Positions 16,899 through 51,139 of a stretch of DNA of 64,000 bases are shown here, in pieces. The first letter of the stretch is position 1; each line of letters starts with the position of its first letter. The stretch comes from an uncultured cyanobacterium (GTDB lineage Bacteria; Cyanobacteriota; Cyanobacteriia; CAKZMO01). Location: positions 736,001-800,000 of the forward strand of contig CAVRCJ010000003.1 of assembly GCA_963719515.1 (NCBI GenBank), in the 5' to 3' direction. The position numbers and the translations under genes are program-made. The notes beneath the pieces are model-generated. The model ran no database searches and was not told the origin of the DNA. It saw only the letters and a list, made by a program, of their open reading frames with translations.

Positions 16899-19800
16899 CT
16901 ACGCATCAGGCCGCGTCTCCGGCATCATGCACTTGTCCGAATCACATCCGGCAGGCCCTGCCTCCAGCCGCTCACCCAAGTCGTAGCGGACCAGCGCTTT
17001 GTAGAAGTCGTCCACCGACCGCCGCTCACACACCTTGCCCATCAGCTGCTCGTACTGAGCTTTGTCGATGGGCTCAAAGGGTAGGCGGGGGAAGGTCTGA
17101 TGGTCATCGAAGCGGGACAGCAGCGCCGCCGACATGTAGCCTGCATCGGTTTCAATAGCCTGGTGAATTGCCTCCGCCAGCGGCTCTACTTCCGGCTCCC
17201 GCAGCTCGATGGTAGCGCTGGTGTTGTGGGTAGTGTAGTGCTGCTGCACCTGCATATAGAAGTCAAACTGAGCTAGGGCGGAGAATTGGCTAATATCGAT
17301 TTGATCTGCGCCCGGTAGGTTGGCCCAGCTCACCTCTGTGGGAATTTCCACCAGCCACTCGGTGCAGCGCGGGTCAAAGGGGTCATCTAGCAGCCGCCCC
17401 TGCTCGTCTTTGTCGGACTGGGCGGGCACGACGCTGTAACCGTAGTCGATGCAGGCTAAAGCTACCGGGTCGCTCTTTCCAAAGGTGATGCGGCGAATGA
17501 ACCGCTGGGCTTTGGGGGGGTGCCAGCCGGAGGAGGCCCCGGTGAGCAGGCTCTTGGTGCCCGCAGGCTGAACGGTGGTGCAGCGGTTGGGCCGCTTGAT
17601 GCCGTGGCGATCGCAGTAGTCCCATACGGTGGCGTGGACGATGTCGCGCCAGCGGTTGAGATACGCCTTCTCCTGCTGCTTGAACTCCAGCCCGCGCATG
17701 GTGTTGGGGCGACCTGCTTCCCACCACTGCAGCCATTCGACGCCAAACGCATGGACGAAGAAGTCAAACAGGCCGGTGAAGGAGACGCCGACGATGGGGT
17801 CCATCTCCCGCGATCGCCGGTAGCGCGGCTCTTGGAAGCGATGGTTGAGCAGGGCGGCGACGGAGAGGGCACCGGCTTTGAAGGCGGCTTCCTGCTCGTC
17901 GGGGTTGTCGGGGTTGAGCTGGTTGAGGTGGACTTCGGCCAAGTTGCAGTGGAAGTCTACGCCGATTATTTCGCCGCAGTTGTGGGCAACGAAGCCGTTG
18001 GCGTCAAAGCGAGCCGGGCCAGGGACGGTGCAGTCGTAAACCGGCTCGATACCGTCTGGTTCGACGCTGCTGACGCGCACTGCAAACTGACCGTGCTGAA
18101 GTCCGTAACGATAGCCTTGCATCAAAGACTCTAACTGCTGCTCCTTTTCGACTTCCGTAAAATGAATCAGCTTATCGAAGATGTAGACACTGTCATTGCT
18201 AATAACTAATTCGTATTGAACTTTATCTGCTTGAGATTGGGATCCGCGTAGAGAGCTTTGAAGCGAACGCTTATCTGTCAGAGGAAGGGTTTGGCAGATA
18301 GTAGATGCCATACCTAGACGTAGCAGCATACGCTGGACGGCTTTAAGAAATTCCAGATCGCTTTCAATAAGGCGAATACTAATGTCTTTGTGCTGCCGCT
18401 CTTGTACAAAGCCATCAACGTTAAACAACTCCTCTAAAAAGCCAAGATAGAAATCGTAGCTCGCTGACTCTATGGCGGGAGTAATAGTTTTTTGTCCGGA
18501 GTTGTTAATGCTGTAGCTCTTGGCCAATTCTTGGACGTTAATGGGAGGAGTTTGCGTGTATCCGTCCAGCTCATACCGTATGACGCTTTGGTACCCAGCG
18601 AGACTAAGCTTTTTCCTCATAAAGCTGCTTAGTAGCTTGCCTTCCTCTTTTGTACCTGATCCTTTCCAACCGCGAAAAGGGTCATGCTCGTGGATAAAGA
18701 CACGATTACCTGGGCGTAGCTCTCCGGCCTCGATCCACTCCTCATCCTCTTCTGTCCGAGTCCAGGATGTTGCCTTAAGAAGCTTATGATTCTCAGTGAG
18801 ACGAAGCTCGTAGCCCTCATTCGTTACTACCTTGACCACAGGCTTTTCGCCAGTGCAAAAGAAACCCTCTTCCGTAGTGCTGTGTAATTTGCCATCTACA
18901 TACACGTTTATAGAGCGTTGCTCATTTTTTAACTCACTCACCTGGCGAGCACCGTGCTCGGTATGGACCCAGGTATCCGCAGTAACGCAGGGATTGAGGC
19001 CATAGCGCTCCGTACGGTGCTTCAGCTCCTCAGCAGCTAAAGGCTCTACACCAGAGTTAGACGCCAGCTCCTGTAGGTAGGATTGAGCTGCTTCCGGAGA
19101 GCTGGTGTAGCGCTTCAGAAACTCAGCCTTCTCCTCAGGCGATCGCACCAAATCCACATTCGCCCGCGCGATCGCCTCTCCTGCCCATTGGATAGCGCCT
19201 TCCCCAGAGTAATACTGCTTGCGCACCGCCGCTTGGCATTCTTCTAGCGAGGGCTTGTGGTGAAACACGCGGGTATGGTTGGCCATGCGCAGCACGTCTC
19301 GCTCGGGGTCAATGCGCCAGCTCCCGTCTGCATCCTGTCCCCATAAATTATCCTTAGCTTGAGCCGCCTGATCGTCGTCGCTGCCAAACTGACGAATTCC
19401 CGCGCTGCGCCGAATATTCCCGGCAACAACACAAGCTGCCGCCTCATCAATCAACAGGCAGCATTCCACCGACGTCAGTTTCCGGCCCTGCGCCTTATTG
19501 AGAATATTGGCGCAGCGCTGGTAAAGCCTAGGCAGGCGCACAGGATTGGCCACGCCGCCGAATCCCTTTAGCTTCTCTCCCGCTGGCCGCACGTGGCTCA
19601 GGTCCACCGTGACGCTTATCTCGCCAGTAAACCGCTCATCGGTCGATAGCTCCAGCAGCGCTTGATACGACGACACCCAACCCTGACGGCTATCGCCCAC
19701 CCGAATGTGGACCTCGTGGTCATCGATTGAGACTTCGGTTTTCTCCTGGCGCTGCTCTGCCGGAACGGTGCCGATGTCGCTCTGCGTCACCACCTGCAGC

Positions 19801-20234
19801 AGATTGCGAGGACAGGGAATCAGGTTAATGTACTTGTGCTCTAGCACCGCTCCCGTGCCGCAGCCCATCATGGCTAGGTCCATCATTAGGCCAAAGGCCT
19901 GCCAGTCGATGACGTTGGTGCTGGTGCAGTTATAGGCCCCAGAAAAGTTCTCCGGCTTCTCTAGCCAAGCCGTGCCGCCCACCCACAGCCAGCGCCCCGA
20001 GGGCATCGCCTTAAGCTGCTGCTGCATCTGGCCCACTAGCTCGGCCTCGCGCTCCGAAAGCTGACCTAGCTTCACCAACCCAGTGAGAGTGCGATCGCAC
20101 ATTTGCCCCCAGGTTTCGCGGGTGGCGTCGGGGTCGCTGCCGCGGCGGCTGTAGGTCCTGTAGAAGACGGCGGGGGCTGCGGGAGCTGAAGCGGGAAAGC
20201 TTGCTTGACGGGACCGTTCGATGTTTTGAACCAC
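16899..20234 (-). CDS. nrdJ: Class II (adenosylcobalamin-dependent) ribonucleotide reductase, intein-containing
   Basis: PSGRWLW, AYNC, GNIRRSA, NP[intein]CGE, TTVQPAGTKS, C-terminal CDSDKC. Confidence 0.95.
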   Translation of the reverse strand: MVQNIERSRQASFPASAPAAPAVFYRTYSRRGSDPDATRETWGQMCDRTLTGLVKLGQLSEREAELVGQMQQQLKAMPSGRWLWVGGTAWLEKPENFSGAYNCTSTNVIDWQAFGLMMDLAMMGCGTGAVLEHKYINLIPCPRNLLQVVTQSDIGTVPAEQRQEKTEVSIDDHEVHIRVGDSRQGWVSSYQALLELSTDERFTGEISVTVDLSHVRPAGEKLKGFGGVANPVRLPRLYQRCANILNKAQGRKLTSVECCLLIDEAAACVVAGNIRRSAGIRQFGSDDDQAAQAKDNLWGQDADGSWRIDPERDVLRMANHTRVFHHKPSLEECQAAVRKQYYSGEGAIQWAGEAIARANVDLVRSPEEKAEFLKRYTSSPEAAQSYLQELASNSGVEPLAAEELKHRTERYGLNPCVTADTWVHTEHGARQVSELKNEQRSINVYVDGKLHSTTEEGFFCTGEKPVVKVVTNEGYELRLTENHKLLKATSWTRTEEDEEWIEAGELRPGNRVFIHEHDPFRGWKGSGTKEEGKLLSSFMRKKLSLAGYQSVIRYELDGYTQTPPINVQELAKSYSINNSGQKTITPAIESASYDFYLGFLEELFNVDGFVQERQHKDISIRLIESDLEFLKAVQRMLLRLGMASTICQTLPLTDKRSLQSSLRGSQSQADKVQYELVISNDSVYIFDKLIHFTEVEKEQQLESLMQGYRYGLQHGQFAVRVSSVEPDGIEPVYDCTVPGPARFDANGFVAHNCGEIIGVDFHCNLAEVHLNQLNPDNPDEQEAAFKAGALSVAALLNHRFQEPRYRRSREMDPIVGVSFTGLFDFFVHAFGVEWLQWWEAGRPNTMRGLEFKQQEKAYLNRWRDIVHATVWDYCDRHGIKRPNRCTTVQPAGTKSLLTGASSGWHPPKAQRFIRRITFGKSDPVALACIDYGYSVVPAQSDKDEQGRLLDDPFDPRCTEWLVEIPTEVSWANLPGADQIDISQFSALAQFDFYMQVQQHYTTHNTSATIELREPEVEPLAEAIHQAIETDAGYMSAALLSRFDDHQTFPRLPFEPIDKAQYEQLMGKVCERRSVDDFYKALVRYDLGERLEAGPAGCDSDKCMMPETRPDA
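17979..18989 (-). mobile_element. Intein (337 aa) with degenerate LAGLIDADG endonuclease
   Basis: Starts CVTADTWV, block B LRLTENHK, ends VYDCTV...NGFVAHN followed by C+1; FLEELFNVDG LAGLIDADG-like block; more AT-rich than exteins. Confidence 0.92.
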
Positions 20235-20746: not shown

Positions 20747-22843
20747 CTACGACAATAGAATGTCCTCACTCGAAACGCCGTACAGCTGACAGACTAGCTT
20801 ATCAATTTCGAAGTCTATTCTCTGCTGCGAGTCGCCCTGCGCGATGTGACCCCCCGTAGGGCGACTCAATAGCTGTCGCTGGCAGACCAGCTCGCGCAAG
20901 CGCTCAACTTCTGAAGGCGATTGGACCCAGACGTACTCTGGCGGCAGCGGCAGCGATCGCACCTGGGGTGGCCCTACCCGCAAGTAGCCCCCCTGAAGGG
21001 CATTGCCGCCAAATACCGCCTGAAAGTAGGCGGTCATCAGGGCGCTATTGAGCAATCCGAGCAAAACCGGGCCGATGACTGGAGCCTGGTCTGCATCGAG
21101 CAGGATGATCGTCGTAGACTTCCCCGCCATCAGCATGCCTGACTTATCCCAGACGCACTCTAGCTGCTGAGTAAGGCCGGCAACAATCAGCTTGGATGAG
21201 GCGGACTGTTGGTAGCGCTTGGGAAAGGCGCTCAACAGCTCAGCTTTTGCAATCACGGGTCGCCGGTAGCGATCGCCCAAGTAGCGTAAGGGTTTGGTGC
21301 CCCAGCCGTGGGTATAGCGATCGATGGTGCCGCTATTCACCACCTGAAACTCAGTAGGCTGGGACAGTTTGTGAATGAGATCGTAAATGAGGGGCTGCAG
21401 TCGGTAGGCTTCGGATACTGACGCAGCCCCCACCACCGTCGCGGCGCTGCTCAAGGTTGGATAAGTCTGGAGTTGGGAGAGCCAAGAGCGCTGACTCGGC
21501 GGGGAGAGACACCAGGGTTGGGAAGTGCGGAAGCGCTGGGGGCAGAGTCTATGGGCTTTGGCAGGCTTCGCTGGGGGAGCCATCACCTCATAGAGGACCG
21601 TATCGGTCTGGGAGGGGGCACGCTTTTGAAGCGTATAGACAAAGGGGTAGACCGCCGCCTGAAAACTCCCCACTCGGCTGTAGTCCCGCAGGTGGTATAG
21701 CCCGTACTGGCCCAGCAGCGATCGCGCTTCTGCCGCGTAATCCGCGCAAATAAGCTTATTGGGCACCACAAAGCTATGCCAGCCTCCCTCACCGCACAGC
21801 TCCAGCGCCCGCTCAATGAAAACGCAAAACAGATCCCAGTTGCCCTGCGCCGTCAGGTATCGTCGGCCCCGGGCCGATCTGCCGCGGCAGTAGGCGCGCC
21901 AGTGAGGAAGCTGAGCCACCATCGCCTCTGAGTCGAGGTAGGGGGGGTTGCCGAGCACAACGTCAAACTGAGTTTGCTGGAGGGGATAAGGGGCGAGGTC
22001 TAGGGCGATCGCCTCGAGAGGCCCCGAAGTATGTATAAGGGCATTGCCGCAGCGGATGGTTTGGCTGAGGCTGGTCAGACCATAGATGCGATCGCCGGTA
22101 TCATTCACATCCCAGAGCGATTTTGAGGGTTCACCGTTCGCAGCGGCCCCCCGGCCCCCAATGCTGGGGGAGCAGGATTCGAGGTTAGAAGTACTTGCCT
22201 CTGATGACAGCGAGCAGTCTGAGTTTGCCTGGGTTCCCTCAAATGTCGGGGCTGAGGGGTCCACGAGAGACCAAATACTACTCCGACATGTTCTACCAGC
22301 GGCGTTAACAGCATAGCCACGTTCTAGAACTGCCTTCGCCACCGCCAAACCCAGAGCCAATCGCGTCACCGCCACCGCATTGGGGTCAATATCGACGCCG
22401 GATAGCGCACCCAGCAGCCGTGCGTAGTCCTGTGGGAGCGAGGGTTGACAGCGCTGAACCAAATACCGGTAGGCTAAAACGAGAAAAATTCCGCCGCCGC
22501 AGGCCGGGTCGAGAACGGTGGGCGCGGTTGAGCCGCGGCAGGCTGGCGCTAGGGTGGCCTCCACCATGAACTGGGCGATCGCTTCTGGGGTGTAGTAGCT
22601 GCCCTGGCGCTTGCGGGTGGGGGTTGCTGTGGTGGAAGACGCCAGCTCGGCCTCGTAGGTTTGACCCAGCACGATGGGCAGCTGATGCAAGCCCGGCGAC
22701 AGAGACCAAGAGCGCTGCAGTATTGCCCAGAGGTCGATCGATACGTCGAGTTCAGCGGTGCATGCTGGGGCGATCGCGCTCCACCAGTGGCGCAGGTGCT
22801 CTAGGGTGAACGCTGCAGCAGGATCTACCATCAACGGAGCCAC
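20747..22843 (-). CDS. N6-adenine DNA methyltransferase (Eco57I/TaqI-like) with C-terminal TRD and no evident nuclease domain
   Basis: GSYYTP, VLDPACGGGIFL, GNPPY, LLGLLNS, IDKLVCQLYG. Confidence 0.85.
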   Translation of the reverse strand: MAPLMVDPAAAFTLEHLRHWWSAIAPACTAELDVSIDLWAILQRSWSLSPGLHQLPIVLGQTYEAELASSTTATPTRKRQGSYYTPEAIAQFMVEATLAPACRGSTAPTVLDPACGGGIFLVLAYRYLVQRCQPSLPQDYARLLGALSGVDIDPNAVAVTRLALGLAVAKAVLERGYAVNAAGRTCRSSIWSLVDPSAPTFEGTQANSDCSLSSEASTSNLESCSPSIGGRGAAANGEPSKSLWDVNDTGDRIYGLTSLSQTIRCGNALIHTSGPLEAIALDLAPYPLQQTQFDVVLGNPPYLDSEAMVAQLPHWRAYCRGRSARGRRYLTAQGNWDLFCVFIERALELCGEGGWHSFVVPNKLICADYAAEARSLLGQYGLYHLRDYSRVGSFQAAVYPFVYTLQKRAPSQTDTVLYEVMAPPAKPAKAHRLCPQRFRTSQPWCLSPPSQRSWLSQLQTYPTLSSAATVVGAASVSEAYRLQPLIYDLIHKLSQPTEFQVVNSGTIDRYTHGWGTKPLRYLGDRYRRPVIAKAELLSAFPKRYQQSASSKLIVAGLTQQLECVWDKSGMLMAGKSTTIILLDADQAPVIGPVLLGLLNSALMTAYFQAVFGGNALQGGYLRVGPPQVRSLPLPPEYVWVQSPSEVERLRELVCQRQLLSRPTGGHIAQGDSQQRIDFEIDKLVCQLYGVSSEDILLS
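22145..22262. repeat. Cyanobacterial double-hairpin dispersed repeat inserted in frame in the MTase
   Basis: ggccccccggcccccaatgctgggggag...ccctcaaatgtcggggctgagggg; translates as SPSIGGRGA within a low-complexity insert. Confidence 0.6.
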
Positions 22844-23156: not shown

Positions 23157-23522
23157 TTAGCGCAGTGGGCGCTGCTGCACCAGGTAGCTCAGCACCTGCC
23201 CTTGGGCCGGGGTAATGCGAATCCCCTGCTCCGGCACCGTAATCAGCGGTGTCCACAGGCGGTGCTCCACATACTGCAGCACATGCAGCCGCTCAATGGC
23301 GTGGCGAACGCCTTCGGGAGAGCCGACTGATCAGATGGCGCAAGTACTCACATCCGGGAGCGGGGGAGGGTTCAACCAGGGTGGGGACACTCGGCTCTGC
23401 TTCCAGGAGGGAGGGAAGCCGCGTAGACGAGTCCGCTGCGAGCTGGTTCAGATTGGGCTGTTGCACAGCGAGCTGGGCGGCCTCTTGAATCAAGGGCAGC
23501 GAAGGGATATTGAATTGTCATG
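23157..23522 (-). pseudogene. Frameshifted homolog of the 50360-50668 hypothetical protein
   Basis: Reconstructed MTIQY/PSLPLIQEAA...EYLRHLI/VGSPEGVRHAIERLHVLQYVEHRLWTPLITVPEQGIRITPAQGQVLSYLVQQRPLR*, two +1 shifts. Confidence 0.8.
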
Positions 23523-23773
23523 AGGGACTCCGGTTTTGTGTTGTGTTGGAGTCCCCCAAAGAACCCGGACATTCCAGACGTTTTAGGGGTTCGGAATGAC
23601 TCAGGTACAATCGACGCAGGTCATCCGCACAGCTAACTCTGTCGTGGTGGCTCAGGGGCCACATGTTGCTGATCATCAACATGCGGCTCCGCCAGACCGA
23701 ATCTTTGGGAGACTAGAACCATGGGACACGGCTCTAGCCACACAGAATAGGTCATCTGCGTCTGCTATGGCAA
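23523..23773 (-). ncRNA. Putative structured leader RNA with promoter (copy 1)
   Basis: TTGCCA-18-TATTCT promoter; 5' hairpin; CCCAAAGA...TCTTTGGG closing stem enclosing three hairpins; same architecture as copy 2. Confidence 0.65.
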
Positions 23774-23922
23774 GAGGGCGGCTGATATTTCAGCAGTTCT
23801 CAGTTTGGCGGATGATGAGCAATCGACGAGCTGACTACGCTTTCAGCCCACCCGCAGATAAATGATGCTGTTGGCGAATAGGGGGTCAGATTCTTCATTA
23901 GAGTTTCAGCTTCGCTTTCACC

Positions 23923-25143: not shown

Positions 25144-27990
25144 ATGAATGCAGTCGAGATCGAAGAAGCCGTCTCCCAACTTGCCGAAGCGCCCTTCGAC
25201 GCAGAAGCATTCCCTTTTGCCTTCCTCGAAGCCTTCGGCAACAAGAAAACGACTATCAAAAAGCTTAAAAGCCGAAAAAATAGCTCTAATAAATCCGACC
25301 TGGGCGGCGTTCTCCAACGCAGTAATATTCACCTGAAGGTGTGCCCGGAAGGTGAGGTGACGGCTACGCTCGCCGCCCTGCGGGAGAGCCCCGCTACTGC
25401 GAAACATAAGGCAAAGCTTGTTCTGGCGACCGACGGCCAAACCTTGGAGGCAGAGAACCTCGCCGATGGTGAGACGGTCGCCTGTGACTACCCTGACTTC
25501 CACGACCATTTCGGCTTTTTCCTGCCGCTGGCGGGCATTACGACGGTCAAGCAGATTCGGGAGAATGCCTTCGACATCAAGGCGACGGGTCGCCTCAACC
25601 GCCTGTATGTGGAGCTGCTGAAGGAGAACCCAGACTGGGATACGGCGGAGCGTCGCCAGGAGATGAACCACTTTATGGCGCGGCTGATCTTCTGCTTCTT
25701 TGCGGAGGATACGAATATTTTCTACAGCGATAACCTGTTTACGGACACTGTTGCGCAGATGAGCGAGCGCGATTCTTCGAATACCCATGAGGTGCTAGCA
25801 GAAATTTTTCGGGCGATGAGCATTCCGGTGAAGGAGCGGGCAGCGGCGGGTATTCGCAGCTGGGCGAATGCATTTCCCTATGCGAATGGGGGGCTGTTTG
25901 GCTCTTATCCTAGCCCTCATCCCGTAGCCCCTCCCAAAGCGGGAGAAGGGGAACAAGAGACCATTTCTCCCCTCTCCCTATCTGGGAGAGGGGCCGGGGG
26001 TGAGGGCGTCCCTCGCTTCAGCCGCATCGCTCGCTCCTACCTGCTACACGTCGGCAATCTGGACTGGACCAAGATCAACCCCGACATCTTCGGCTCGATG
26101 ATTCAGGCGGTGGCGGATGACGAAGAGCGGGGGGCGCTGGGGATGCACTATACCAGCGTGCCAAACATCCTCAAGGTGCTAAATCCGCTGTTTTTAGATG
26201 ATTTGCGTGTCCAGCTAGAAGCGGCAGAGGACAATAGCCGCAAGCTGCTGAACCTGCGTAAGCGGATGGCCCGGATTCGGGTATTTGACCCGGCCTGTGG
26301 GTCGGGGAATTTTTTGGTGATCGCTTACAAGGAGATGAGGGCGATCGAGGCGGAAATTAATCAACGGCGGGGGGAGCCGGAGCGCGGGTCGGAGATTCCG
26401 CTAACGAATTTTCGGGGAATTGAGATTCGGCATTTTTCTTGTGAGGTGGCACGGCTGGCGCTGATTATTGCGGAGTATCAGTGTGATGTGCTGTATCGGG
26501 GGCAGCGGCTGGCACTGGCGGAGTTTTTGCCGCTGAAGGATGATAACTGGATTACCTGTGGGAATGCGCTAAGGCTGGATTGGTTGAGCGTTTGTCCGCC
26601 GACGGGGACGGAGGTGAGGGTGCAGGGGGAGGATTTGTTTAGCACCGTGCATGATGAGGCGGAGGTGGAGTTTGAGAATGAGGGGGGGGAGACATATATT
26701 TGTGGGAATCCGCCTTATAAAGGTAGTAACTGGCGTACAAAAGAGCAAACAGAGGATCTAGGCGCGCTATTTGTATCTAGAACGAAAACTTGGAAAGCAC
26801 TTGACTATGTATGCGGATGGATTCTAAAGGCCGCTGACTATAGTCAAACTACTACAACTGTAAGCGCTTTTGTTGCTACGAACTCAATCTGTCAAGGAGG
26901 ACAAGCATCAATTCTTTGGCCACTCATTCGCAAAAGTAGTCAAGAGATTTTCTTTGCCTATACGTCTTTCACATGGTCCAATTTGGCAAGTCACAATGCA
27001 GGAGTATCTGTAGTCATAGTTGGGTTGTCTAGCTTTCCTCTTAAAGGACGTAAGCTTTACGAGCTTGATAGTAGTGGTTCGCTTAGCGTAAAGAACGTTA
27101 AAAATATAAATGCTTATCTCATAAACGCTAAGAATGTCTTTGTCAAACCCATAAGAGAGCCTATTAGCTTTGATGCTGAAATCACTGATGGAAGTGGTGC
27201 ATTGGACAATGGATATCTGATACTTGATCGGAAGCAGCGAGATAGAATAGCTGATGAAAGCCATGGAGGATTTGCAAGATATATTCGTCCATGCATAGGT
27301 TCTGGAGAGCTCATAAAAGGTTCTCTTCGGTGGTGTATTTGGATTAAAGACGATGAGCTAGATAATGCTTTAAATAGCGAAGAAATTTCTCAGCGAATAG
27401 AGCAAGTCAGACAATACAGAAAAAACGGTGGAACACGGGCTCAGACAGCAGCTTGCCGCCCCCATAAATTTGCTTGGATCAATAAACGTAATACCTGTCA
27501 GATAGTTGTGCCAACAGTTTTTTCTGAGAATAGAAATTACGTTACCGCAGGATATTTAGACGACAACTACGTGATCAATAACAATGCCAGCATAATTCAA
27601 GAACCCGGCCTCTATGTCTTCTCTGTTGTTTCTTCAAGCATACATTTGTCCTGGGTGAGAGCCATTTCAGGAAGGCTTAGACAAGACATAAGATATACAT
27701 CCTCTACTTGCTACAATACCTTCCCTATCCCCACCCTCACCGAACAAAATAAAACCGACCTCACCCGCTGCGCCGAAGACATCCTCCTCGCCCGCGAACG
27801 CTACTTCCCCGCCACCATCGCCGACATGTACGACCCCGATCGCATGGACAGCGAGTTCCCCCTCGTCCGCCAAGCCCACGATCGCAACGACGAGGTGCTA
27901 GAGCGCATCTACATCGGTCGCCGCTTCAAGAATGATACGGAGCGGCTAGAAAAGCTGTTTGAGCTGTATACCAAGATGACCAGTAAGTGA
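25144..27990 (+). CDS. MmeI-like/YeeA-type N6-adenine DNA methyltransferase
   Basis: INPDIFGSM, GMHYTS, FDPACGSGNFL, GNPPY, YNTFP. Confidence 0.9.
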   Translation: MNAVEIEEAVSQLAEAPFDAEAFPFAFLEAFGNKKTTIKKLKSRKNSSNKSDLGGVLQRSNIHLKVCPEGEVTATLAALRESPATAKHKAKLVLATDGQTLEAENLADGETVACDYPDFHDHFGFFLPLAGITTVKQIRENAFDIKATGRLNRLYVELLKENPDWDTAERRQEMNHFMARLIFCFFAEDTNIFYSDNLFTDTVAQMSERDSSNTHEVLAEIFRAMSIPVKERAAAGIRSWANAFPYANGGLFGSYPSPHPVAPPKAGEGEQETISPLSLSGRGAGGEGVPRFSRIARSYLLHVGNLDWTKINPDIFGSMIQAVADDEERGALGMHYTSVPNILKVLNPLFLDDLRVQLEAAEDNSRKLLNLRKRMARIRVFDPACGSGNFLVIAYKEMRAIEAEINQRRGEPERGSEIPLTNFRGIEIRHFSCEVARLALIIAEYQCDVLYRGQRLALAEFLPLKDDNWITCGNALRLDWLSVCPPTGTEVRVQGEDLFSTVHDEAEVEFENEGGETYICGNPPYKGSNWRTKEQTEDLGALFVSRTKTWKALDYVCGWILKAADYSQTTTTVSAFVATNSICQGGQASILWPLIRKSSQEIFFAYTSFTWSNLASHNAGVSVVIVGLSSFPLKGRKLYELDSSGSLSVKNVKNINAYLINAKNVFVKPIREPISFDAEITDGSGALDNGYLILDRKQRDRIADESHGGFARYIRPCIGSGELIKGSLRWCIWIKDDELDNALNSEEISQRIEQVRQYRKNGGTRAQTAACRPHKFAWINKRNTCQIVVPTVFSENRNYVTAGYLDDNYVINNNASIIQEPGLYVFSVVSSSIHLSWVRAISGRLRQDIRYTSSTCYNTFPIPTLTEQNKTDLTRCAEDILLARERYFPATIADMYDPDRMDSEFPLVRQAHDRNDEVLERIYIGRRFKNDTERLEKLFELYTKMTSK
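25913..26008. repeat. Double-hairpin dispersed repeat inserted in frame in the MmeI-like MTase
   Basis: ccctcatccc...cctcccaaagcgggagaagggg...cccctctccctatctgggagaggggccgggggtgagggc; encodes PHPVAPPKAGEGEQETISPLSLSGRGAGGEG. Confidence 0.8.
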
Positions 27991-47290: not shown

Positions 47291-47410
47291 TTTCTCTATA
47301 TGCCTAGATAGTGACGTGACGGGATTCTCTCTGTTGGGCGACGAAAGCAGACCTGAAAACCCTGGACAATGGTTTTGGCTGTTCTTTCGTACACGTTAGC
47401 ACCCCCCATT

Positions 47411-48704
47411 ATGGCACTGTTCAAAATAGGCGATCGCGTTCCAGACTATGAAAATCAGTACCTCAATGGCAGAGCGGTCAAGGGTGTTGCCGTTTACGCT
47501 AATGATGAAAAAGTCGGCAGCGCTCACGACCTTTTAGTGGATGATGACGGTCGAATTCGCTATTTAGTCATCGACACTGGATTTTGGATTTTTGGGAAGA
47601 AAGTGCTGCTGCCCATTGGGCACTGCGAGGATGTAGCAGAGAGCGATCGCATCCACGCCAACGGGCTCACCGAAGCGCAGGTAGAAAATCTGCCGGCATA
47701 TTATGACGAGCTTGTAGTAGACGATGACTACGAAAAGCGGGTGCGCTCAGCTTACCGAACGGCGACGGCAGACCAACCTGCCTCTGAGAATGATCATAAT
47801 GACCCTATTGCGCCGGAGACTCACGAACGGGAGGCAGATGCAGACGCCACGGGGGATGATGGGTCTCGTCGGCTGCGTCTATATGAGGAGCGGCTTGTCG
47901 CGCACAAGCGTCGTCAGAAGACGGGCGAAGTTAAAGTGAGCAAGCGCGTCGTGACAGAGCAGGTTGAAGGCTCTGTGCCCCTGTATAAAGAGAAGATTAT
48001 TATCGAAATCGAGTCGTTTCCCGGCATGACCCAGGTCAACGTCGCGGGGAGGACGGTCGAGACGGGCAGTGGCGCCCGCGCCGATCTGTACGCTGACGAA
48101 CTCGAAATTCGCAAAGAAGCGGTGGTTCGCCAAGAGGTCACAATCCGCAAAGAGATCGACGAAGAGGTGGTGACCGTAAGCGACACCGTGCGGCGAGAAG
48201 AGATAGAGGTGTACCAAGAGGGCGTATCTGAGGTTGACGGTGTTGACCGTGAAGCCTCACAGACAAGGTCTAGCGCTTCCGAAGCACCCCCCGCTTCCCA
48301 GACGACGAGCAGCGCGCCTCAAAAAACGAGCAGCGCGCCCCATCGATCGACCACCGCGCCTCAAACCGCCTATTTAATCTTTAATCCGGCTGCGGGTCAG
48401 GGAGACCCCGAGCAAGAGCTTGGCGTGATTCGATCGGCGCTTGAGCCTGAGATGACGCTCAATATTCATGAGACAACGCCAGAGGTCGGTGCCGATCAGC
48501 TCGCGCATCAGGCTCTGGAGGCGGGTGCGGAAGCGGTCTTGGTGTCTGGCGGTGACGGGACGATCTCTTCCGCTGCCAACGCTGTGGTGGGCCGCGACGT
48601 CCCGCTCGGCATCATTTCCCGAGGAACCGCAAACGCCTTTGCTAATGCCTTAGGTCTGTCTGAAAATATTGAAGAGGCTTGCCAAACCATTCTTCGAGGC
48701 ACGA
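47411..48704 (+). pseudogene. PRC-barrel + DUF2382 fused to the N-terminal half of a YegS/DAGK-type lipid kinase, disrupted by an IS200/IS605 derivative
   Basis: RYLVIDTGFWIFGKKVLLP; RLYEERL; LIFNPAAGQG, SGGDGT, GTANAFA; homology stops at the element edge. Confidence 0.75.
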
Positions 48705-49096
48705 GTGACATCCTCCCGACGCTGACAGCAAGCTGTACAGCGCGGGCTTCCTCAGTGACTCCCAGCTATTGCCGAGACATATCCTGAGATAGGTTTATAC
48801 TCCGCCTGATGCCCCACGGCAGAGTTTTGAATTTTCATCTCCGCGAGGGAGGATACGCACTATGTGTCGCAGATACATTTGCAAACTGAGGAACGGGTAA
48901 CTTGCAGCTTTCGCCTACGGGCCCGTCACACTCTTTGCGGGGTGTATCACCTTGCTATCTCTATCATACCAACTGCTAGCCTCAGCGCTGAGCGCACTAT
49001 CCGCTGTGCATCATTTTGCGGGCGCACTTCGGCTAGCGCGACTCTCATCCCGACGCTCACCCTGACGGGTAGAGCGCGGGGCTTCCTGTCTAGTAG
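48705..49096 (-). mobile_element. Non-autonomous IS200/IS605-family element (no tnpA/tnpB)
   Basis: Two related subterminal hairpins ggaagccc(c)gcgct...agcgtcggga; right end reads GGAGGATGTCAC on minus strand; left boundary approximate. Confidence 0.75.
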
Positions 49097-50276: not shown

Positions 50277-50359
50277 GGTGATGCCTTCCGGGAGGGGGTA
50301 TTTATGATCATAGCCCCCTGCCGTTGGCGTCTCTCCGGAGGGGACCCTGGACATTTTGG

Positions 50360-50668
50360 CTAGCGGGCTATCTCTAGGGAGCGCAGCCGCATCAAGTAAA
50401 ACAGCACCTGCCCCTGACTCTGGGTGATGTGAACGCCGCTGGGGCCAATCTCAATAGGGCCGGTCCACCTGACTGGCTCGACATAGCGCTTCAGGTGCAG
50501 CCGGTAGATGGTTTCGCGGACGCCTTCAGGGGAGCCGATGAGGATGTGGCGGACAACTTCGCTGCTGGGGCCAGGGTCGGGGGGGGTGAGCAGGGTGGGA
50601 GCGGCCTCTGTGGCCAGCATGTCAGGTGCGGCCTCGGGTTGAGGCAGCTCAGGATATAGAAATGTCAT
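50360..50668 (-). CDS. Cyanobacterial small hypothetical protein (RH..IGSPEGV..I..LH family)
   Basis: Intact ORF; clear paralog at 23157-23522. Confidence 0.85.
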   Translation of the reverse strand: MTFLYPELPQPEAAPDMLATEAAPTLLTPPDPGPSSEVVRHILIGSPEGVRETIYRLHLKRYVEPVRWTGPIEIGPSGVHITQSQGQVLFYLMRLRSLEIAR

Positions 50669-50921
50669 GGGTTTTCTCTCTTTTTTATGGGGTAAGAAAA
50701 CCCAAAAATAAGGTCGTGCCTTGTTTTGGGCGGCTGAGGTGGCTGCAGATATTGGATAATACCTGCAGCTCGAAGACAGCTATGTCCTGTCCAAGGGTCA
50801 GGGTGCGATCGCCACCGCTAATGGCGATCGCACCCGTTTGACCAAATTTTTGGGGTTAGCAAGCTGCATCGGACTACAGCTTCTAGCAGATGAGTGTAGC
50901 GCCTTAGGGGATGAGAGGCAA
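50669..50921 (-). ncRNA. Putative structured leader RNA with promoter (copy 2)
   Basis: TTGCCT-17-TACACT promoter; 5' hairpin; CCCAAAAAT...ATTTTTGGG closing stem enclosing three hairpins. Confidence 0.65.
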
Positions 50922-51139
50922 GCGTCAGGTCGTGAAATCAGCGCTCATTTTGAAAAATGCAGGCAACGAACCGTCTGGCTACGCTATCACCCTCGCCACA
51001 GGCAAACGCTAAAGCGATCGCGGTCGTCGCTTGGCGTAGCTATTGCTCTCTTTTAAATCCAGGCACATCGACAGATGATGCAATAGTTTCAACAGCGATA
51101 TCGTTGATCTGACCTGTCGCATTCACCCTCTCATCACCT

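Follow-up and report, generated by a model that had tools for sequence, protein, structure and literature searches.

The structured leader RNA that was first noted at two places on the minus strand of a 64,000-nucleotide stretch of DNA from an uncultured cyanobacterium (here called the window) proves far more widespread than first noted, the window holding just two of the roughly 50 copies that the genome carries. Compensatory changes preserve its fold both inside genera and between them, and the RNA is found on the same strand directly before a member of one family of small proteins. We propose that these RNAs are structured 5′ leaders that act in cis and form an undescribed family with a factor-bound junction, the preferred factor being the basic domain of the family's own protein; as a whole, this statement is given about an even chance of being correct. 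Judged from the sequence, the role of the leader is probably the control of translation of the downstream protein. Structured leaders are known as a kind, while the fold, the partner protein and the fifty-fold amplification are new.

By direct reading, copy B occupies the minus strand at 50921-50669 and copy A at 23773-23522, and the motifs match the first reading. The named motifs, the 5′ hairpin, the closing stem and the second hairpin at the ATG described in the earlier note on this DNA are all present in both copies. The parts of the two copies are listed below with the basis of each assignment.

50916..50921, minus strand: copy B -35 box TTGCCT (direct reading)
50893..50898, minus strand: copy B -10 box TACACT, 17 nt after the -35 box (direct reading)
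50857..50885, minus strand: copy B P1, the 5′-terminal hairpin (fold)
50840..50854, minus strand: copy B closing stem, 5′ strand CCCAAAAATTTGGTC (fold and inverted repeat)
50801..50835, minus strand: copy B P2, long hairpin containing the palindrome GCGATCGC (fold and inverted repeat)
50774..50792, minus strand: copy B P3, hairpin GACAG/CTGTC after the conserved single-stranded CCTGACCC (fold)
50742..50769, minus strand: copy B P4, variable hairpin with a conserved AUU in the loop (fold)
50716..50745, minus strand: copy B P5 region, weakly paired in copy B (alignment reading)
50701..50715, minus strand: copy B closing stem, 3′ strand GACCTTATTTTTGGG (fold and inverted repeat)
50669..50703, minus strand: copy B P6, GGGTTTTCT...AGAAAACCC with an A-rich loop, ending at the ATG (fold)
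50360..50668, minus strand: copy B ORF of 102 aa (translation and homologs)
23744..23773, minus strand: copy A promoter TTGCCA-18-TATTCT (direct reading and consensus scan)
23711..23739, minus strand: copy A P1 (fold)
23697..23709, minus strand: copy A closing stem, 5′ strand CCCAAAGATTCGG (fold and inverted repeat)
23648..23694, minus strand: copy A P2 (fold)
23629..23642, minus strand: copy A P3 (fold)
23569..23628, minus strand: copy A P4 and P5, with two putative competing pairings of GTCATTCC in the copy A subfamily (fold; reading)
23555..23568, minus strand: copy A closing stem, 3′ strand CCGGGTTCTTTGGG (fold and inverted repeat)
23522..23555, minus strand: copy A P6, GGGACTCC...GGAGTCCC with GGAG in the 3′ arm, ending 2 nt before the ATG (fold)
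23157..23521, minus strand: copy A family ORF, broken into three frames (comparison with the nearest paralog)

From 5′ to 3′ the fold consists of P1, a closing stem of about 13 bp around a five-way junction (P2-P5) and P6 abutting the ATG, with a leader length of about 225 nt and a junction core of about 155 nt. Both copies carry a GCTAGA-type 5′ hairpin followed by CCCAAA(A/G)ATT(T/C)GGTC, the long hairpin, CCTGA(C/G)CC and GACAG...CTGT. The motif CCC.AAAAC from the first reading was likewise found in both window copies but did not hold as a feature of the family. The closing stems of the two copies (CCCAAAAAT/ATTTTTGGG and CCCAAAGA/TCTTTGGG) were independently recovered as inverted repeats, closing stem and P2 being detected in this way by a model-independent tool. 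The z scores of the fold were -7.3 for copy B and -4.6 for copy A, with none of 200 shuffled sequences being as good. The pairwise identity of the copies amounted to 73% of aligned columns, and a covariance-model search of the window returned exactly these two full-length copies.

The sigma70-like promoters that had been proposed for both leaders (TTGCCA-18-TATTCT and TTGCCT-17-TACACT) were read in both copies, and the TTG and TA...T within their hexamers proved near-invariant in the paralogs. Among 41 aligned paralog leaders the TTG of the -35 box was kept in 41, 40 and 40, and the T, A and final T of the -10 box in 41, 40 and 41, with a -35/-10 spacing of 17-18 nt in 39. A consensus promoter scan lists the promoter of copy A only, not that of copy B. 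For copy B, the RNA start is predicted near 50886-50889. The hexamer CAAATG, immediately before the -10 box, is a further conserved element of the spacer in most of the 41 copies and lies within 23750-23775 and 50899-50921 (minus strand) of the window; it is a possible operator or sigma-specific element.

The extent of the family in the genome was assessed with the protein and with the RNA. Using the 102-aa ORF of copy B, 46 places were found at E <= 1.2e-12 and, by tblastn, 51 segments at E <= 1e-5, while nhmmer with the two window leaders located 45 leader places. A covariance model of the leader, R1 (226 positions, 55 pairs), was built from 41 leaders of the genome and gave 67 matches to it at E <= 0.01. 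These comprise 44 full-length matches at 138-180 bits, six full-length ones at 27-48 bits, one at 56 bits that is interrupted by the insertion of a multicopy element, one that is truncated at the 5′ end, and 15 short opposite-strand matches on the palindromic P2. For the 44 strong and the six weaker full-length copies, the end of the model falls on the ATG of a family ORF, apart from one of the six weak copies, which is without an ORF at the expected place; the other five precede a distant branch of the protein (MTYD...LRLIAIG..AV...LH..GYA...WSQ). An intact paralog on contig 3 (697851-698057) has no leader, the best score there being 5.4 bits with filters off. The copies are homologous from a point no more than about 20 nt away from the -35 box up to the stop codon; any two of them are 65-88% identical, and some younger pairs share 300 nt more upstream.

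Several observations concern individual loci. The weak leaders (27-48 bits) and their proteins (MTYD..., LRLIAIG...WSQ...VMRILTKR) form a branch labelled type C, with loci at C10:849091-849280, C8:27701-27891, C11:217421-217641, C9:3851-4051 and C10:562229-562432. The type C copy on contig 8 is the one lacking an ORF at the expected place, and type C promoters have CAAAAC where other copies have the spacer CAAATG. In the family copy at C1:181053-181900, some 445 nt from its start, a segment intervenes that has 98% identity to four or more other genomic places and is presumably an insertion sequence.

Conservation of the fold was evaluated by counting pairs and double changes at the 55 pairs of R1, the control being the same count with the 3′ partners slid by 1-3 columns. 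With 29 sequences aligned to the model, of which 27 came from other genomes, 87.8% of the cells paired, compared with 35-49% in the slid controls, and double changes occurred in 40 of the 55 pairs, compared with 9-14 (score 0.34 versus 0.04-0.09). With 82 sequences the corresponding values were 88.8% versus 37-48% of cells and 47 versus 16-28 pairs (score 0.42 versus 0.07-0.11); the alignments behind these pair counts were fitted to the model. The case for a conserved fold is carried by the slid controls and by the changes between genera. A naive all-against-all covariation scan for pseudoknots yielded 281 column pairs with at least 85% pairing, of which 26 are in the model, and was swamped because paralog subfamilies make many unrelated columns co-vary and thereby inflate covariation.

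Double changes were found in all seven helices of the 82 sequences. The closing stem, for which the earlier note had described covariation between the two copies, has 13 pairs that are 93.4% paired, nine of them with double changes, and its compensation is exemplified by UCGG/CCGG, UUGG/CCAA and CUAG/CUGG. The upper seven pairs of P1 are 93.7% paired and all seven show double changes, as do all six model pairs of P6. In P2, 13 of 14 pairs have double changes and some positions show four or five pair types. The five pairs of P3 are 94.8% paired, with an A-U to U-A swap in 20 of 81 sequences (ACAG/CUGU versus ACUG/CAGU). P5 has seven pairs (89.5% paired, five with double changes); it reads GCCATCCC/GGGATGGC in most paralogs and GCCGCCC/GGGCGGC in other genera, an example of covariation being GCCAUCCC/GGGAUGGC versus GCCGCCC/GGGCGGC. 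P4 is a hairpin in every subfamily read, but its sequence differs by subfamily and its columns do not align, and it therefore stands outside the pair counts. Unpaired bases kept in at least 90% of the 82 sequences are the C before P2, the CU after P2, the AU in the P4 loop and the G before P5. The fold is thus kept through compensating mutations in related cyanobacteria, and the leader is therefore a real RNA element.

The view that the family is undescribed was borne out by the searches. Rfam 15 gave no match in the whole window at gathering scores and only chance matches on other strands or at other places in the two leader regions at E<=10, and the RNA of seven loci from other genera matched nothing in Rfam at E<=0.1. 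Full-text literature searches found no description of this RNA. A cyanobacterial RNA-structure screen is reported to have covered only regions beside 931 KEGG gene groups (PMC12873609); these groups would not include this protein family. No likeness to tRNA or to the phage RNAs named in the earlier note was found. ARAGORN gave no tRNA or tmRNA gene in the window, and the resemblance to the phage P4 CI and P1 c4 immunity RNAs was not reflected in any Rfam match at E<=10 in either region. What is shared with the latter is a structured RNA near a promoter, but here there is no prophage context and no phage tblastn match to the protein. A mimic of 5S rRNA, suggested by CCATCCCGAAC, was likewise rejected: the best local match was an 11-nt identity with the genome's own 5S rRNA, most of 50 leaders compared with that rRNA had z below 2, and RF00001 gave no match.

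The protein and the RNA differ in their distribution among other cyanobacteria. A family profile of 26 proteins matched 46 of 401 sampled genomes of the phylum (24 of 156 genera), and R1 matched 10 of 151 (6 of 80 genera), both counts including the own genome, so that the RNA was found in 9 of 150 others; in the R1 search, no more than 15 candidates were scored for each genome. R1 was present in all five genomes of one genus, with at least 13 copies in one complete genome, and gave no match in 17 genomes of one family nor in 50 of another. Outside the own genome, 24 of 26 R1 matches are followed by a family ORF at the ATG of the model, and one of the other two runs off a contig end. For the Elainellaceae/Leptolyngbyaceae assemblies, the RNA was upstream of the protein match at 10 of the 11 loci examined (12 found). 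Moreover, loci are syntenic between species of another genus. Ten further protein-bearing genomes were searched; R1 matched two (19 and 9 copies) and at its sensitivity none of the remaining eight. Upstream of homologs on two Nostocales plasmids R1 found nothing, and the region upstream of the Anabaena variabilis plasmid homolog had a fold z of -2.1 and no R1 match. The RNA thus goes with one large branch of the protein and not with all of it; because distant homologs, at the sensitivity of R1, and one paralog of the own genome are without the RNA, the protein does not need it.

Two further observations were made on these genomes. Distant homologs of the protein lie on Nostocales plasmids, one of them on Trichormus variabilis ATCC 29413 plasmid D (25134-25433) and others on a further 12 plasmid records; the plasmid D homolog sits between parG and a replication-related gene, with an upstream gap of 495 nt that is without this RNA. 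In one other genome, four matches (e.g. C95:61830-61982) cover just the junction core, at model positions 35-190, and lack P1 and P6; a family ORF follows about 130 nt downstream of at least one of them.

The protein encoded downstream belongs, as first proposed, to an uncharacterised family of small proteins of about 100 aa, with about fifty paralogs and no Pfam or NCBIfam family. The 39 intact paralogs have 91-158 aa and start with MT(F/I)(L/Q)YP. Their N-terminal part is variable, acidic and rich in proline (pI 4.2, 18% Pro), and their C-terminal domain of 60 residues is basic (pI 10.4) with the motif RH.(I/L)IGSP.GV...I..LH...Y.E...W; in copy B this domain reads RHILIGSPEGVRETIYRLH...W.... 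The ORFs are kept open, with dN/dS of 0.53 overall, 0.46 in the C-domain and 0.67 before it. Some paralogs carry a 13-residue insert, GCVGPSGPVEDSH, before the RH motif that is absent in close relatives (e.g. C1:327214-327579 and C18:20899-21261).

Neither Pfam, NCBIfam nor PHROGs holds a family for the small protein, PADLOC assigned none to five family proteins at E<=1, and a PDB sequence search gave no match below E 0.5. A profile search of 1.84 billion representatives returned 258 proteins at E <= 0.001, nearly all of 60-160 aa; a match of 2131 aa was a repetitive coiled-coil protein and was taken as spurious. The homologs in the databases are labelled hypothetical and come from Microcoleus, Lyngbya, Leptolyngbya, Scytonema, Brasilonema and Mastigocladopsis, while close relatives of the protein are labelled Elainellaceae. 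A first structure model had a pLDDT of 54.5. With 100 sequences, AlphaFold2 reached a mean pLDDT of 71.1, about 90 at residues 40-80, with one clear helix at 47-59. Foldseek with the predicted model gave nothing, the best VIA Z being 2.3 and without a structural neighbour, and the ESM Atlas contained only unnamed cyanobacterial clusters. In the model with a pLDDT of 71, no recognisable RNA-binding fold was found.

The hairpin next to the start codon was described in the earlier note as an alternative to the closing stem that covers the ribosome-binding site. As an alternative it was not supported. P6 shares at most three G with the closing stem (three in copy B, one in copy A, where there is a run of five G), and both coexist in predicted folds: among the minimum-energy folds of 41 leaders, 37 contained P6 and 21 the closing stem (at least 6 of 13 pairs), while 19 contained both. 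Since 19 of the 21 predicted folds with a closing stem also hold P6, the two appear there as neighbours rather than alternatives. In both window copies, an 18-nt inverted repeat would allow a longer helix of the P1 3′ arm and closing stem against the closing stem and the P6 5′ arm, in which the P1 3′ arm and the P6 5′ arm are consumed. This extended helix was rejected as a family feature, pairing 53.9% of cells family-wide compared with 51-61% for slid controls, and is confined to the subfamily of copy A. Switching is, on these folds, a conjecture.

The masking of the ribosome-binding site was upheld in part. The Shine-Dalgarno sequence lies inside P6 in most lineages, the 3′ arm carrying GGAG, AGGA or GAGA-type motifs, and the unpaired probability at positions -14 to -5 had a median of means of 0.33 in 81 leaders and values of 0.01-0.1 in one other genus. 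Another genus differs in all five genomes sampled: there the P6 hairpin (GGGTTTTTC/GAAAACCC) is short, and AGGAG is free behind it (unpaired 0.43-0.76). Masking is not universal because AGGAG lies free in this genus; masking by P6 is plausible from the folding in the present genome and is not a family rule. Terminator-like sites were not found on the minus strand of either leader region. In-frame coding through P6 (peptides such as LGFLT..RKP) was considered and rejected: the distance from GGG to ATG is 32, 33, 34 or 35 nt among close copies, and due to this out-of-frame spacing there is no coding upstream of the ATG.

In the mechanism that we prefer, each unit would be a self-contained gene with its own promoter, a leader of about 225 nt and an ORF of about 90-130 aa, and the conserved promoter suggests that the leader is transcribed as the 5′ leader of each family gene. 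The five-way-junction domain would serve as the binding site of a trans factor whose occupancy may alter the degree to which the ribosome-binding site is hidden by P6 and the closing stem next to it, and translation of the whole set of paralogs would then be controlled in common. The preferred factor is the basic domain of the family itself, which would provide feedback and cross-talk among paralogs by analogy with ribosomal-protein leaders; the chief alternative would be a small ligand. P1, located at the extreme 5′ end, would probably also guard the mRNA from 5′-end-dependent decay. Leaders of ribosomal-protein operons are structured, end at the ribosome-binding site of a gene for a small basic protein and mediate feedback by the product. 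The present leader resembles them in its structure and in ending at the ribosome-binding site of such a gene, feedback being the working model, and differs from them in that its protein is without a known RNA-binding fold and that the likeness to rRNA is only the 11-nt 5S identity in some copies.

A second explanation, which we regard as rather unlikely, is a new class of riboswitch in which a small molecule or ion would bind the junction as its aptamer, with P6 as expression platform and the approximately 50 genes as one regulon under control of the ligand. Size and complexity point in this direction, with five helices, a core of about 155 nt and the conserved C, CU, AU and G of the junction, as do the strong covariation and the fixed 5′-UTR position between promoter and ATG. 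The lysine riboswitch likewise has a five-way junction with a closing stem and four hairpins in about 150-180 nt; the present RNA shares the closing stem and the four hairpins at one junction but has no match to it in sequence or model (Rfam), and its downstream genes are unrelated. The glutamine riboswitch (glnA RNA, RF01739), whose ligand is known, precedes small regulatory proteins in cyanobacteria and is thus similarly a cyanobacterial leader RNA before a small protein gene, but it is much smaller, has one or few copies and, as RF01739, gave no match here. The yjdF motif RNA is reported to be a large conserved leader almost exclusively before one protein family of unknown function (PMC4793209), and the exclusive tie of a conserved leader fold to such a family is shared by the present element, whereas the fold differs (no Rfam match) and the copy number is about 50 per genome. 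Against a riboswitch stand the failure to find a conserved mutually exclusive structure in 41 folds and in the family-wide helix test, the lack of a terminator after the leader, the free ribosome-binding site in one genus and the downstream genes, which suggest no metabolite. Moreover, we know of no riboswitch class with about 50 copies before one non-enzyme family.

The RNA might also be more than a regulator of one gene. It is unlikely, and suggested only tentatively, that RNA and basic protein are a dedicated pair of undescribed kind whose copies constitute a network with cross-talk, or else an addiction- or defence-like system. The module would then consist of the promoter, a junction RNA of 190 nt and a basic domain of 60 residues with an acidic tail, the RNA being partner or antagonist of the protein, and the approximately 50 diverged copies in some filamentous cyanobacteria would reflect something other than simple feedback on one gene. 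Quite unlikely is the related explanation that the RNA is its own product, i.e. a stable RNA, cleaved from the ORF or terminating ahead of it, that acts in trans or makes up a particle together with the basic protein, in a selfish, addiction- or defence-like module. It would agree with the architecture of the RNA, which is kept across genera though the proteins share only a core of about 35 aa, with the fast evolution of the protein (dN/dS 0.53) and with the neighbourhood, in which many genes are accessory (restriction-modification, PIN, Uma2, transposases and integrase).

Copies with broken ORFs bear on the same question. Relative to its nearest paralog (85-91% identical), the ORF of copy A has two 1-nt insertions that split it into three frames and is either a pseudogene or an assembly error, and its leader still scores 164.6 bits. 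Three other copies combine a broken ORF with a high-scoring leader (contig 10 near 637988, contig 7 near 55286 and contig 11 near 453771), and the leaders of all four score 146-170 bits, which hints at a role independent of the ORF. These copies may simply be young, because they are still 95% like intact paralogs in the C-domain; their identity profiles are mosaic. Further points against a free RNA are that neither tandem RNA repeats nor a terminator between RNA and ORF were found and that PADLOC and PHROGs gave no match to the family, and phages and plasmids none to the window protein. In type III toxin-antitoxin loci (ToxIN), a small protein gene is preceded by an RNA gene that consists of tandem repeats and has a terminator behind it. 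The location of the RNA directly upstream of a small protein gene and the many loci per genome are alike, but a type III system was rejected by its defining features, tandem repeats and terminator, both of which are missing here (no tandem repeat with a score of at least 30 at 50300-51000). As to a toxin of the ToxN/AbiQ endoribonuclease type, five family proteins gave no PADLOC family at E<=1, and the fold comparison was uninformative.

A 5′ structure that only stabilises the mRNA or enhances translation, with no sensing, is improbable. P1 begins at the predicted 5′ end and the A/C-rich loops of P6 could be ribosome standby sites, but for stabilisation a single 5′ hairpin would suffice, and the conserved five-way junction with its invariant bases asks for more.

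With respect to genomic context, no conserved neighbour gene was found across the family loci, the picking of ORFs being crude in one comparison. Copy B is adjoined by the PsaL gene and is followed on the same strand, within about 75 nt, by a gene for an ABC-transporter ATPase with which its ORF may be co-transcribed, judging by this spacing; this arrangement is not a family trait. Judged by their translations, the large ORFs flanking copy A at 20747-22843 (minus strand) and 25144-27990 (plus strand) read like N6-adenine DNA methyltransferase or type IIG restriction-modification proteins, and an ORF of 1111 aa at 16899-20234 (minus strand) reads like a ribonucleotide reductase with an intein-like insert. 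At 47369-48787 (plus strand), a protein of 472 aa combines PRC-barrel, DUF2382 and diacylglycerol-kinase catalytic domains. A search for terminal inverted repeats found only internal stems, and tblastn of the window protein against phages and plasmids gave no match. Because the copies are diverged (65-88%), dispersed, without terminal repeats and syntenic in another genus, they represent a gene family and not an active mobile element. A MITE- or IS-like transposed repeat with an incidental fold is highly improbable, as the about 50 dispersed copies and their sharp common boundaries would suggest it, but the divergence and synteny of the copies, the lack of terminal inverted repeats and of a transposase, the compensatory changes and the coincidence of the boundaries with promoter and stop codon stand against it.

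Bacterial RNAs that are large, rich in junctions, strongly covarying and outside every known family are seldom found, and most have proved to be sensors, ribozymes or scaffolds of ribonucleoprotein particles. The leader and its protein offer several points of access. The about 50 diverged paralogs, together with 1 to at least 19 copies in other genera, supply compensatory variation for modelling, and the genera with few copies (probably Microcoleus-like, by their names) are suited to genetics. Moreover, the RNA opens a way into a protein family with at least 258 clusters, which all sources label 'hypothetical'. Should the RNA be a ligand sensor, it would constitute a new riboswitch class with a regulon of 50 genes; if it binds its own product, the protein would contain a new RNA-binding domain.
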